This document shows positions 1,117 to 63,676 of a DNA stretch of 64,000 nucleotides, one piece after another. A model generated the notes under the pieces. That model ran no database searches, was not told where the DNA came from, and worked only from the letters and a program-made list of their open reading frames with translations. This DNA comes from Octopus vulgaris. Taxonomy: Eukaryota. A program made the translations under genes and the position numbers. Location of the stretch: positions 78,182,001 to 78,246,000 of the forward strand of contig OX597821.1 of the NCBI GenBank assembly GCA_951406725.2, written 5' to 3'. Position 1 is the stretch's first letter; every line of letters begins with the position of its first letter.

Positions 1117-1166
1117 CTACTTGAAAAGGACTGAGATGACCAATTCGTTTATAAGTTTTTCATTGC
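1117..1166 (-). CDS. Gene A terminal coding exon 5 (GNEKLINELVISVLFK*)
   Basis: ttttcttttccag acceptor, in-frame TAG at 1117-1119; 50 nt; paralog at 40945-40994. Joined CDS is 729 nt = 242 aa + stop. Confidence 0.84.
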
Positions 1167-1321
1167 CTGGAAAAGAAAAGGTAAAATTTGTTAAAGATTT
1201 ATGAAGTTATCTGTATTTCTCAATGATCATGATTCGATATATACATACATTCATACATATCTGTATGAATGTTAACACGCACAAAGATACGTATATGCCA
1301 TGCACACAAACCAGGGAATAA

Positions 1322-1617
1322 CCATCCATCCATCCATCCATCCATCCATCCATCCATCCATCCATCCATCCAACCATCCATCCATCTATCTATCTATCTA
1401 TCTATCTATCTATCTATCTATCTATCTATCTATCTATCTATCTATCTATCTATCTATCTATCTATCTATCTATCTATCTATCTATCTATCTATCTGCCTG
1501 CCTGGCTGTCTGTCTATGTATGTATATATGTATGTATCTATAAGTATATATATCTACGCTTTTTGTACACACACACACACACACACACACACACACACAT
1601 ATATATATATATATATA
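1322..1617. repeat. Compound microsatellite (ATCC)n(ATCT)n...(CA)n(TA)n
   Basis: Direct reading. Confidence 0.95.
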
Positions 1618-1782
1618 ATTAGAAAAACCCCCACCTTTTATCAATTAAAAATGAACAATTAAATTACACCCTCTAGAAAATTATATATAATAGAAATATT
1701 AAAATTAAAATAACAATAAAATATCAATGATTAAGTAAATTGCAAAAAAATAAATAAAAACGTATATAATAGGTAGAATAAT

Positions 1783-1866
1783 GACACGTGTTTCGTGGCT
1801 ATATTTAAGAAATAATTATTGTAGTAGTAAAATCACTTCGATATAAATATAGCCACTCATCAGGTT
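1783..1866 (-). ncRNA. Hammerhead motif (intact core and 12-bp stem II, broken stem I)
   Basis: Reverse strand: CTGATGA gtggctatattt...aaatatagccac GAAAC acgt GTC. Confidence 0.6.
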
Positions 1867-1957
1867 CAAAATAAACTAGAATAATAAATAAATTAATTAA
1901 TAAATATACATTAGTATATATATATATATATATACATATATATATATATATATATAT

Positions 1958-2407
1958 AGGCACAGGAGTGGATGTGTGGTAAGTAGCTTGCTAACAAACC
2001 ACATGGTTCCGGGTTCAGTCCCACTGCGTGGCATTTTGGGCAAGTGTCTTCTGTTATAACCTCGGGCCGACCAAAGCCTTGTGAGTGGATGTGGTAGACG
2101 GAAACGGAAAGAAGCCTGTCATATATATATATATATATATATATATATATATATATATATATATATACATATATATATATATATGTATGTGTGTGTATAT
2201 GTTTATGTGTCTGTGTTTGTCCCTCTAGCATTGCTTGACGAGCGATACTGGTGTGTTTACATCCCCATCACTTAGCGATTCGGCAAAAGAGACCGATAGA
2301 ATAAGTACTGGGCTTTCAAAGAATTAGTCCCGAGGTCGATTTGCTCGACTAAAGGCGGTGCTTCAGCATGGCCGCAGTCAAATGACTGAAACGAGTAAAA
2401 GAGTAAA
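1958..2407 (+). mobile_element. tRNA-derived SINE with internal (TA)n/(TG)n tract (octopus-type)
   Basis: A-box-like tgtgtggtaag and B-box-like gggttcagtccc head, gggcaagtgtctt CORE-like segment, tail ...gactgaaacgagtaaaagagtaaa. Confidence 0.75.
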
Positions 2408-59512: not shown

Positions 59513-60981
59513 TATATATATAACAGCAAAACTTATACACAAGAAAGCTTATACAAAGCTTTACATTTTACTTTTGACAATCTGTTTCTAAAAATGTGAA
59601 ACCGGTCAAGTGCATTTTCAGACCTTCTTTCATATATATTTCCACTCGTGCGGTACCTTACAACTTCACTTTGTTACATATATATATATATATATATATA
59701 TATATATGTGTGTGTGTGTGTGTGTGTGTGTGTGTGTGCGCGCGTGTGTGTGTTTGCGTGCGTGTGTGTGTGTCTGTGTTTGTGTGTGTGTGTGTGTGTG
59801 TGTGTGTTATAGATATACATATAATTCTAAAATTCTGTATACATACTTAAATATGATTCTTTCTCTATATATGCTTATATACAACCAGGATTTTTGATGA
59901 ACTTAAAATAATTACGAATATATTTTACTACCTAGTTTAAACACTTTCATGTAAGCAGTTTAAACAAAAAACCTCTTAACATTTTCCTATCGTTGTCAAA
60001 GGTTCTATTTTTTAACATTTTAATCATTTTCAAAGACTCTATTTCTTAACATTTTCTCATCATTATGAAATACTATATCTCTATTTTACTACAACTATGT
60101 TAACCATTTTCTAACACAACAAAGGTTTAGCTTTTACTATTCATAATCGTGTTTTAAAAAAATTGAAACCGGTCAAGTCAATAAACATTTTTAAAAGACC
60201 TCGGCATTTTCAAATCCTCTGTCCTATACATACATACATACATACATACATACATAAATACACACACACTCACAGATACACACACACACGCACACATACA
60301 CACATATATAGGGAGAATTCACAAAAAAATACAGACGAAGACAGGCGGTGTAGACAAGAAACAGACATATTAGTACAACGCTTGGGAAGTGAAAATGTCT
60401 TTAACGTTTTGAGCCTATGCTCTTCCACAGAAAGGAACACAGAAAGAAACAAGGCGAGAAAATAAAGAATGTGTAGTGACTAGCGATCTTTCATGGCAAA
60501 TGCCAGACAGAAGTGTCACACAGGAGAACTAGGATGAAGGAGGATAATAAAGTACTGGTGATCCCAAAACGAGTGTGCGCATGCGTTTGTATAAGAGAGT
60601 ATGTATGTGCGTGTGAAAGAGGGCTGGTGACTTTGATGCGTGCGTGCGTGAATTTTACACCGTACTACTAAGTATATTTGACGTTTGTCTCCCTCACACG
60701 CACAATCACACATAAACACACACAGAGACACAAATGCAGTTATATACACACACTCATACACATACATAAAAACTCGCACTCATTAACACAAGCACACACC
60801 CGCACATCCCCATACATACAGCATACATAGTGACCCCTACCTATTTTATAACTTCCTCCTTCTACCCATTTTGACGTCATTGCTTATAACGGATTATTTA
60901 AAAAAAAACACTCATTATCACTGTGGTCACCATGTAGGCAATCATCAAAAACTTTTGTTCATCTTGTGGCTGAAAGAGGCT

Positions 60982-61076
60982 CCTTATCTTTCCTGATGAG
61001 AAGATGGCATAATGCACCCTTTATTCCTTCGGAATTAAAAGTATGCCGTCTTCGAAACATGTGTCGAGAGTAAAGG
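60982..61076 (+). ncRNA. Type I hammerhead ribozyme with long stem II
   Basis: ctttc CTGATGA gaagatggcata...tatgccgtcttc GAAAC atgt GTC gagag; 12-bp stem II, 5-bp stem I, predicted cleavage after C61065. Confidence 0.8.
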
Positions 61077-61614
61077 AATTTTGTTAAAATCTTCGTTCGA
61101 CTCCATTCTTTCATTTATTCATATAAAAAACACACAAATTTCCACACAAGAACCCGGAGTTTCTACCCTTAACAGGTCGCTTCAACCGTGTTTTCTGACG
61201 TGAATTTGCTACCCAGGTATCGGTTAAACGAATTTTCCATGCTAGGATAATTCATTCACCTACTTAAATATATATATATATATATAAGTAAAATCTCATT
61301 ATAAAAGTAATTCATTAAACGAAGTTTAAGCGTTACATCAAATAGAATGAACTGAAGCAGATTTTAAAAATTGGATCTATTAATTCACTATTCAGTACCT
61401 CCCGACAGCTGTTTCTTTCAAAAAGAGAATAATAACATAAAAATTGAAAAAAAAGTACATTATCCTGTAATTTCTTTTTGAACGTCATCAGTGGAATATA
61501 ATTAAACTTAAAGGACATTTAAAATGAATACCTTGAGTTTTCTTCTTTACGATCACAATGAAAAAGGAGTAGTTTCTTACACTTTCAACTTGCAACATCT
61601 TTCAACCACCAAAT

Positions 61615-62575
61615 CTCAAAATAAGATTGATACATCAGGTTGATGACATCATAAGACTTGGAAGCAACTCCTTGAGCAACATTCCTTGTCTGATAGCCTA
61701 GAAAATATGCCCAAAGAAGTCGCACGACTCTACCGCAATGTATCATAAGATAAAAAGATGAGCCTATATAAGCAGAAGACTATGCCTTAATAAGATAGTG
61801 GAACGCTCTGAGATGAGAATAACATCGATCATCAAAGAATTCTATCATGGACCAACAACAGAATTCCTACCTTCCACTTTGCAGGGTAAGCGTTTGCAAT
61901 CCTGGAACAGGAAATATCAACCCAATACCTGATGCACAAAAGGGATAGAGATGGAGGAAATGCAATAAAATATGATAACCGATGCATATTTTGTGAAGTT
62001 AACACCGAAGATATCAGCCACATCATAAATAATTGTTCGAGGATGTCAACACGGTTTATCTAACGATGAGACATGATGCTGCAGCTAAGATACTCTATAA
62101 TGAAATCCGTCGGAAGGATGACCCCGAGGACAAAGAAACAACAATCCACAGTATGGTAGTAACCACAGCCACACATAATAAAAAGGAGTACTGGTGGACT
62201 GCTTGAGTGAAGACCTCAATAAAATGTTACCACAATAAAATGTAGGCACAATGATTTGGGATAGAGAAGAGTAACTGTGTACAATTGTGAAAATTAGCTG
62301 CCCTGGGGATGTTAGCATAAAGCTAAAGATCAGTGTAAAAGAGAATACCTACGCTGAACTATTGAAAATCTGCAGTTACTCTATTCAGACTACAAGTTCA
62401 GGTTTATGCCTGTACGTATTGGGGCCCTGAGATATGTAACACACTGCCTGAATACTAAATTTGGGGAACAAGACTTCTCAAACAAGAAAGGAGGAAGCTA
62501 ATTCGAAGACCTCAGATCCACTCCATCACTGGAACTGTAAAAATATGTAAAACTTAACCCATGTTTATCATTTAA
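61615..62575 (+). mobile_element. Decayed R4/Dong-like LINE 3' part
   Basis: FAILEQEISTQYL, C.FC..NTEDISHIINNC knuckle and ISCPGD RLE remnant. Confidence 0.7.
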
Positions 62576-63346
62576 ATATATATGAGCATGGCTAGATATG
62601 CAACTGTATGCATTATTATACATACATAAAACAAAACATACAAATCTACACATATATATTTATACATACATACATACACACATACATACATACATACATA
62701 CATACATACATACATACATACATACATACATACATACATACACACACACATACATACAAGCAGAAATACCCTGTTGTTGATGTTGAACTTCCAAAGAAGA
62801 AGCCTTGGCTCTAGGTTAGAAATCTTGTAATAAAAAACTGAACAATGATATACATACATACACATAAACATATATACACACATATAGATTCAAAACAACA
62901 ACGAACATCTCAAATAACCTTTCTCAATACATCTTTCCAAAACTACAGATATTCAACTCCAGATATTTTCAACAAAATCATATATAAGATGTATAAATCT
63001 TCTATAAAAGACCATTCATTAATGACTCCCTAAAAGGGTCTAAAGCACTAAAACAATCTTTATCCTACTCCTGACTAGCTTTTCTTCTTAATACATAAAA
63101 TGTGTCCACAACTTCAAACAATCTATCTGTCTGTCTCCTCCCCCACTCTCTCTCTAGCTATGTCTTCCTATCTCTATCTGTCTCTGTCTCTGTCTCTCTG
63201 TATGTGTGTGTGTATGTGTGTGTATATGTGTGTGTGTGTGTGTGTGTATGTGTGTGTGTATATGTGTGTGTGCGTATAACGTTGGGTAAATGATGGAAAT
63301 ATAACAAACCAAACATAACAAAAGACAAGGAAAATGATTTACATAC

Positions 63347-63676
63347 TGTTTTCATTGAGCAAGATATACGATGAACAGTCGCAATCATAATCTTCCAGTT
63401 CTCCGCTGTAAAACGGTCGATGCATGTGACATACGCCATTACAATAGCTGAAATATCCACACTCAGCGTGTGATATACACTGAATTGCACACTGGGTACG
63501 AGATGCCGTCGTCTCAGTTATTTTATATTTGTCAAGTAAGCATTTTGATTTAGTAAGTATTTTGAAACGACTTTCATTATACTCTGCGTTGCAAGTTCTC
63601 GTAGTGACGAAAAGTATTAGTGCGATAGCTTGCAACAATTCGAGTATCCGACGATGTTGAATTGACGTTTCCACTC
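63347..63676 (-). CDS. Gene B coding exon 1: signal peptide + PAN/apple-like domain (GTG where gene A has ATG)
   Basis: tttttcag acceptor at 63677-63678, A|gtatgt donor; 330 nt as in gene A; all 8 mature-domain Cys conserved. Confidence 0.85.

Follow-up and report, generated by a model that had tools for sequence, protein, structure and literature searches.

Background

The gene family expansions known in octopus are mainly neural or sensory. The closest functional analogy to the genes described here is found in snails, where the FREPs of Biomphalaria (PMC3342036) are expanded, two-module mollusc defence proteins that join N-terminal IgSF to fibrinogen domains. Genes A and B lie in a stretch of 64,000 nucleotides of Octopus vulgaris DNA (the window; G000:C8:78,182,001-78,246,000, in a genome of 2.8 Gb) and belong to a family that is also two-module and expanded. 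However, its members carry a PAN domain where FREPs have IgSF, and their C-terminal domain (C-domain) has no cysteines. The diversity of the octopus family is germline diversity. It appears to be an undescribed family of the diversified invertebrate recognition kind built on a different scaffold, for which the searches made returned no Pfam family, solved structure or paper. Its copies combine a conserved PAN exon with C-domain loops under diversifying selection, a feature that had escaped the initial annotation of the window together with the sixth exon of each gene.

Structure of genes A and B

Genes A and B were identified as minus-strand paralogs by a six-frame motif search and a self-comparison of the window. 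Their five downstream exons (330, 92, 149, 110 and 50 nt; phases 1/1/0/2/1) are the same in both, have GT-AG ends and, when spliced in silico, give an open frame of 242 residues in A and B alike. The initial annotation had described this tandem pair, with its equal exon sizes and phases and its 242-residue frame, as five-exon genes; all of this stands except the number of exons. A 13-nt first coding exon (M-N-L-K plus 1 nt, phase 1, strong donor) lies upstream of both 330-nt exons, at 4.6 kb in B and at 2.2 kb in A, where it falls 1.9 kb outside the window. Since it is present upstream in both genes and relatives, including their RefSeq models, begin with MNLKG, each gene is assigned six coding exons, five GT..AG introns and a product of 247 aa. 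The 330-nt exon of gene A starts ag/GA GTG, without an ATG, as it does in three neighbour genes. The MNLK exon pattern has eleven exact matches in the genome, all beside family loci on contigs C4, C8 and C29, and the control gave 0 matches. The coding exons are:

25826..25838, minus strand: gene B exon 1, ATG, M-N-L-K plus 1 nt; the same exon precedes the paralogs
20929..21258, minus strand: gene B exon 2, predicted signal peptide and PAN/apple domain with 8 Cys (fold from the model of a homolog)
13326..13417, minus strand: gene B exon 3, start of the C-domain, WQKV strand and LYW helix
7921..8069, minus strand: gene B exon 4, C-domain, variable loops 1 and 2 and the conserved GTN.TSW stretch
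4005..4114, minus strand: gene B exon 5, C-domain, variable loops 3 and 4
1117..1166, minus strand: gene B exon 6, last strand and TAG stop
G000:C8:78247912-78247900, minus strand: gene A exon 1, MNLK, beyond the window
63347..63676, minus strand: gene A exon 2, predicted signal peptide and PAN/apple domain, without ATG
57613..57704, minus strand: gene A exon 3
49241..49389, minus strand: gene A exon 4, variable loops 1 and 2
44706..44815, minus strand: gene A exon 5, variable loops 3 and 4
40945..40994, minus strand: gene A exon 6, last strand and TAG stop

Both genes are real and intact, each with an open frame. Chance is excluded because ten further PAN exons on C8 are accompanied by matching downstream exons and splice sites, and because exons 2-5 are all called in 26 of the 37 C29 and C4 loci that have a PAN exon. 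The products share eight cysteines in the mature PAN part, encoded by the 330-nt exon, with none in the later exons, and they carry several N-glycosylation sequons (5 in A, 4 in B), which bears out what had been annotated. Hydropathy (best 15-mer 2.36 and 1.85), with a CNA/E-type site recognized by eye, predicts a signal peptide in both proteins.

Reading the last exon in frame straight after exon 4 produced an immediate stop in B; this solution was rejected and led to exon 5. Three further similarities between the genes (62869-63136/16492-16760, 44877-44971/5381-5476 and 46605-46762/5555-5703) were set aside as non-coding intron sequence. Exon 2 is of phase 1-1, and three database models (P0013, P0020 and P0094) join the MNLK exon directly to exon 3. 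Such a joint would drop both the signal peptide and the PAN domain, and may represent either true skipping or a model error. An orphan and slightly degenerate MNLK exon is located between genes at G000:C8:78271129 (+), and no PAN exon was found after it.

Family size and genomic clusters

The PAN exon of gene B has 64 matches in the genome, some of them fragments. They are distributed between C8 (18 at 78.11-78.85 Mb and one distal), C29 (40 in 1.6 Mb, at 16.94-18.53 Mb, and 3 elsewhere) and C4 (2). Exon 4 has 50 matches, mostly adjoining those of the PAN exon. The Octopus family comprises roughly 60 loci, and the lineage expansion and the extension of the array beyond the window, both anticipated in the initial annotation, are supported. 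A third copy was not found inside the window. Over 464 kb of C8, eleven genes share the same exon plan and splice sites, although some last exons were not located. A stop in a called exon is present in 6 of the 37 C29 and C4 loci, some of these being mis-called exons.

All 20 short-form database matches that were looked up come from O. bimaculoides, O. sinensis or O. vulgaris. UniRef entries called 'Apple domain-containing protein' and uncharacterized RefSeq loci (LOC106874575, LOC106876621-5, LOC118764386) belong to the same family; their names are automatic and many of the models are fragments or fusions. One of them, LOC106874575, groups with the C-domain clade of gene B in the tree. The O. 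sinensis RefSeq model of LOC118764386 (P0001) fuses the neighbouring genes matching C8:78336 and C8:78294, its true N-terminus being replaced. For three older genes of C8, O. bimaculoides has one-to-one partners. A 14-gene clade of C29 has no partner among the 9 models from O. bimaculoides that the PAN tree includes, which makes it likely to be young.

Copies have also exchanged sequence. Gene B is a mosaic: from exon 4 to exon 6, introns included, it shares 84-95% identity with an inverted paralog at C8:78.44-78.48 Mb (window 500-8208 aligned with G000:C8:78465437-78478182), against 74-76% in the exon 2-3 regions. This alignment indicates that recombination or conversion between inverted paralogs has shaped gene B. 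Identical PAN exon translations are observed in three C29 pairs (L042/L050, L049/L055 and L060/L061); in the last two pairs the called exons 3-4 differ, and recent duplication, conversion or haplotype copies may be involved. One paralog, represented in two species (L078 and P0003), carries an in-frame run of short SSAND-type repeats inside the PAN domain.

No paper on the family was found in the literature searched, including searches under six LOC and six UniProt identifiers, with subscription venom-proteomics articles and bioRxiv supplements outside its reach. The accessible text of PMC9068888 has 0 matches to 'PAN', 'apple' or 'fibrinogen', the readable supplement files of PMC9712504 hold 0 family matches, and the family LOCs were not found in the accessible parts of PMC9258296 and PMC10778463.

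Selection on the C-domain exons

The C29 data set was drawn from 38 C29 and C4 loci (one of which, L079, has a frameshifted PAN exon and no PAN call) and is limited to one PAN clade and one exon-4 subtype. Mis-called or frameshifted exons, for example in L060, L069 and L072, were excluded, leaving 18, 16, 13 and 13 genes for exons 2, 3, 4 and 5. Two loci with a stop elsewhere (L046 and L061) were kept in the main set and removed from the gap-free subsets. Members of this clade have almost the same PAN exon and exon 3, but four short segments of exons 4 and 5 vary between them. The ratio of non-synonymous (dN) to synonymous (dS) divergence, computed by the Nei-Gojobori method (NG86), is 0.57 for exon 2 and 0.50 for exon 3. 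It rises to 1.67 [1.06-2.79] for exon 4 and 2.39 [1.28-5.40] for exon 5, with dS at 0.09-0.14 across exons 2-5. The gap-free subsets, devoid of stop-bearing genes, give 0.56 for exon 2, 2.18 for exon 4 (7 genes) and 2.43 for exon 5 (10 genes). Values of dN reach 0.234 in exon 4 and 0.220 in exon 5, compared with a divergence of 0.084 in the intron that separates them. The 200 nt before exon 4 diverge by 0.082 and the 200 nt after exon 5 by a higher 0.17; intron and pre-exon-4 divergence amounts to about a third of dN in exons 4-5. Site models M1a and M2a, run with our own code on a fixed tree shape with naive empirical Bayes (NEB) posteriors, differ by twice the log-likelihood difference (2dL) of 41.9 for exon 4 and 62.9 for exon 5, against 10.2 for exon 3 (one site) and a non-significant 4.4 for exon 2.

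The seven-gene C8 clade holding A and B is older (dS about 0.5 in exons 4-5 and 0.26 in exon 2); the lower value in exon 2 suggests that the PAN exon has been homogenised. In the site tests of this clade, p is 0.009 for exon 4 and 0.0014 for exon 5, in the same loops as in C29, and 0.27 for exon 3. Diversifying selection thus acts on exons 4-5, strongly in the C29 cluster and more weakly in the A/B clade, and the PAN exon is under purifying selection.

Of the 26 selected sites of exons 4-5, 22 map to alternate strand connections of the C-domain model (C-D, E-F, G-H and I-J) or to adjacent positions (Fisher p=1.4e-5). The GTN.TSW and N.S sequon stretches, which are conserved, lie in the remaining connections. 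Since alternate connections of an up-and-down sheet share one end, the variable loops are expected at one end of the domain, where they would form a single face.

Several points weigh against this picture. The family recombines, which can inflate site tests, and pairwise values are not independent. In the C8 clade, whole-exon dN/dS does not, with rounding, exceed 1 (0.62 for exon 4 and 1.04 for exon 5), and exon 2 also shows a marginal site signal (p=0.04). Finally, the single face is derived from strand alternation in a model of high confidence (predicted local distance difference test, pLDDT, 94) and not from coordinates.

Domain architecture and fold

The N-terminal domain scores below the Pfam cut-off (gene A: PAN_1, E 0.026, 14.8 bits against 21.4; gene B: PAN_2, E 0.48). 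A model of the homolog P0004, of mean pLDDT 57.7 (61-78 over residues 51-90), has 2yil (Z 7.0), 2ll4 (6.6) and 6o1g (6.6) as its best fold matches. The top match is the SML-2 lectin (root mean square deviation, rmsd, 2.5 over 60 residues) and TgMIC4 follows at Z 6.6; both are parasite lectins. The top 12 matches are taken to be PAN/apple-type domains. Judged on this homolog model, the N-terminal domain has the PAN/apple fold (a curved sheet bearing a helix, with disulfide links), as had been proposed. It would share it with the module found in SML-2, TgMIC4, the apple domains of kallikrein and FXI and the N-domain of HGF (PAN_1), with a sub-cut-off Pfam score, eight cysteines and a putative binding role of its own.

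The C-domain is an abridged version of an invertebrate domain that has no name. When 1.84 billion representative sequences were searched by profile, 86 matches were obtained, of which about 30 are the Octopus family and most others carry a longer domain of about 150-205 aa (W.LVF...HYRS...W...I..VK...F.G.G...WF...RRFFI...GC..D.GW...C...ADV.AI). Among the ten matches looked up, the hosts are bivalves, a gastropod, amphioxus, Argonauta and Octopus itself; examples of the long domain are Dreissena KAH3750350.1, Solemya KAL5007023.1, Littorina XP_070189242.1, Branchiostoma XP_078667427.1 and O. sinensis XP_036360271.1. This long domain often lies downstream of PAN, Sushi, EGF, TSP1 or C-lectin domains. 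HHalign relates the short and long forms at 99.5% locally and 99.6% end to end, in keeping with the initial suggestion of an uncharacterised domain common in molluscs. With about 130 aa, the short form has lost two inserts. It lacks the GC..D.GW...C cysteine pair of the long domain and the insert that follows the first strand there, and 16 of 21 short-form sequences have no cysteine whereas all 22 long ones have 2-7. The Octopus short forms, expanded in tandem, constitute one clade in the midpoint-rooted tree (46 sequences, support 97/96). No Pfam family matches the long domain over cut-off, the best being a weak DUF7922 score in one repeat protein, and a sequence search of the PDB with its profile gave 0 matches. 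In one O. bimaculoides protein (P0055, XP_052830469.1), PAN and a long-form domain are split by a low-complexity K/D/E/G/C insert of roughly 300 residues.

The C-domain model, made from 43 sequences, is confident (pLDDT 94; predicted template modelling score, pTM, 0.87). Foldseek gave no match at E<=0.001 for it, nor for the P0004 model. In a comparison of the C-domain model with 48,161 representative chains, the highest Z is 5.0, and TLDc and fibrinogen-related chains are tied. In a second look at the Foldseek top 1000, fibrinogen-related domains (FReDs; ficolins, tachylectin 5A, fibrinogen alphaEC) occupy the first ten rows (Z 4.9-5.3) with a topology that matches the model end to end. Fibrinogen-related matches as a whole cover 107-122 of 140 residues at rmsd 3.3-4.5, with Z of 4.2-5.3 over the whole length. 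TLDc domains (OXR1/NCOA7/TBC1D24) give Z 4.1-5.0 at rmsd 4.3-5.0; TLDc proteins are intracellular V-ATPase binders. The ESM Atlas gives TM 0.71 to a cluster auto-named fibrinogen C-terminal, and the nearest named clusters are Fibrinogen_C/COLFI, which is a lead only.

A fibrinogen origin is opposed by other comparisons. The fold match is weak and tied with TLDc. Profile comparison with 9 octopus FReD sequences gives a probability of 0.2-0.5% and scores of 13-17, where 40 column shuffles reach 19; profile homology was rejected, its scores being no better than those of shuffled controls. Pfam Fibrinogen_C has no match in the family proteins searched, and a genome-wide PF00147 search yields 15 matches, none at the family clusters. 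The cysteines around the GGWW strand of fibrinogen domains, kept in octopus FReDs, are missing in the C-domains of A and B. Pfam TLDc likewise has no match in the family proteins searched. By none of these tests are the family proteins fibrinogen-related proteins, and the modelled C-domain has no clear solved relative. A distant fibrinogen-like ancestry, raised as a remote resemblance in the initial annotation, is plausible but unproven: the leading fold matches agree with it, and the TLDc tie and the null profile result do not.

Repeats in the window

Decayed Tc1/mariner-like transposase frames are found in introns at 4241-5270 (+) and 56616-57194 (-). Remnants of LINE-like reverse transcriptases occur at 9651-12330, 45354-46363, 51271-51726 and 53804-54136, and Penelope/GIY-YIG-like remnants at 14402-14758, 19406-19837, 21536-22270 and 39524-39940; all these labels were given by eye. 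LINE-like inverted copies pair 10.7-12.9 kb with 50.8-53.1 kb. The last intron of gene A includes nested inverted repeats of 159-177 nt (92-93%) at 41964-42654.

Proposed function and alternatives

Tandem expansion with dN>dS confined to the variable module, the mark of a diversified germline recognition family, is found here. Because the C-domain loops change faster than neutral DNA in sister copies, an inherited library of binding proteins is likely. We regard it as an even call that these are secreted proteins acting as a germline library that recognises non-self, most likely of microbial origin. The predicted signal peptide would direct secretion of a glycoprotein whose conserved PAN domain serves as a constant arm and probably holds a fixed partner. 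The cysteine-free C-domain would bind varied foreign surfaces, presumably those of microbes, via its fast-evolving loops on one predicted face. Tandem expansion, recombination and dN above neutral may together generate such a constant-plus-variable recognition repertoire. A bolder version, possible but rather doubtful, would make the family an antibody-like germline repertoire of dozens of secreted non-self receptors. Each would consist of a homogenised PAN arm and a disulfide-free beta domain, a scaffold without solved relative. Strong diversifying selection would act on four or five loops at one end of the beta domain, and recombination would reshuffle them among paralogs.

One point tells against a recognition library: reproductive and venom proteins are just as typically under diversifying selection. 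No exon-exon joint is present among the matches listed for four runs at gene B exon 2 and four at the C29 paralog L066, and a contig of run X3 continues into the intron, so that it is DNA or unspliced; these results have no bearing on expression.

The same signature of predicted secreted, tandem and positively selected genes would be expected of proteins that serve recognition or coating in reproduction (spermatophore, oviducal gland, egg case) and diversify under sexual selection or conflict. The likely youth of the 14-gene C29 clade and the fusion of long-domain relatives to ZP domains (P0022) are consistent with such a role, which we nevertheless consider unlikely, as dozens of paralogs with different loops would fit many targets better than one gamete receptor. 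Alternatively, the proteins could be secretions of the salivary or venom gland, or of sucker or skin, with diverse binding targets among prey or environmental molecules, including a lipocalin-like carrier of chemical cues. The family is predicted to be secreted, disulfide-rich and glycosylated, it is positively selected, and residues of about 22-139 of the C-domain model align weakly with eight-stranded barrels (de novo BB1, Z 4.4; avidins, Z 3.5-4.3). However, these matches rank below the fibrinogen and TLDc rows, all under Z 5. The accessible part of PMC10138644 reports 3 'Apple-like' proteins in O. vulgaris skin mucus, without identifiers; family identifiers and motifs were not found in its proteome supplement, whose identifiers may not be comparable. 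A role as a glandular, sucker or skin secretion seems improbable.

A family duplicating under relaxed constraint, in which loop variation reflects a tolerant surface, gene conversion or alignment error, would account for the stops in called exons, for the mosaic genes and for the whole-exon ratios of the C8 clade. Relaxation cannot, however, raise dN (0.22-0.23) above the dS of the same exons and above intron divergence, and the gap-free subsets give the same result. Relaxed constraint is therefore already contradicted for the C29 clade, and we judge it very unlikely overall.

Conclusions

Genes A and B belong to a large family that has no name and whose products are predicted to be secreted. 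Its constant/variable layout is clear and the positive selection on it strong, and public models represent it mostly as fragments or fusions. The C-domain offers a way into a widespread invertebrate domain for which the libraries searched contain neither a Pfam family nor a solved structure, and, on its model, may provide a small natural disulfide-free scaffold for binding. The family points to an arms race at the molecular level in octopus, with microbes, mates or prey as the opponents.

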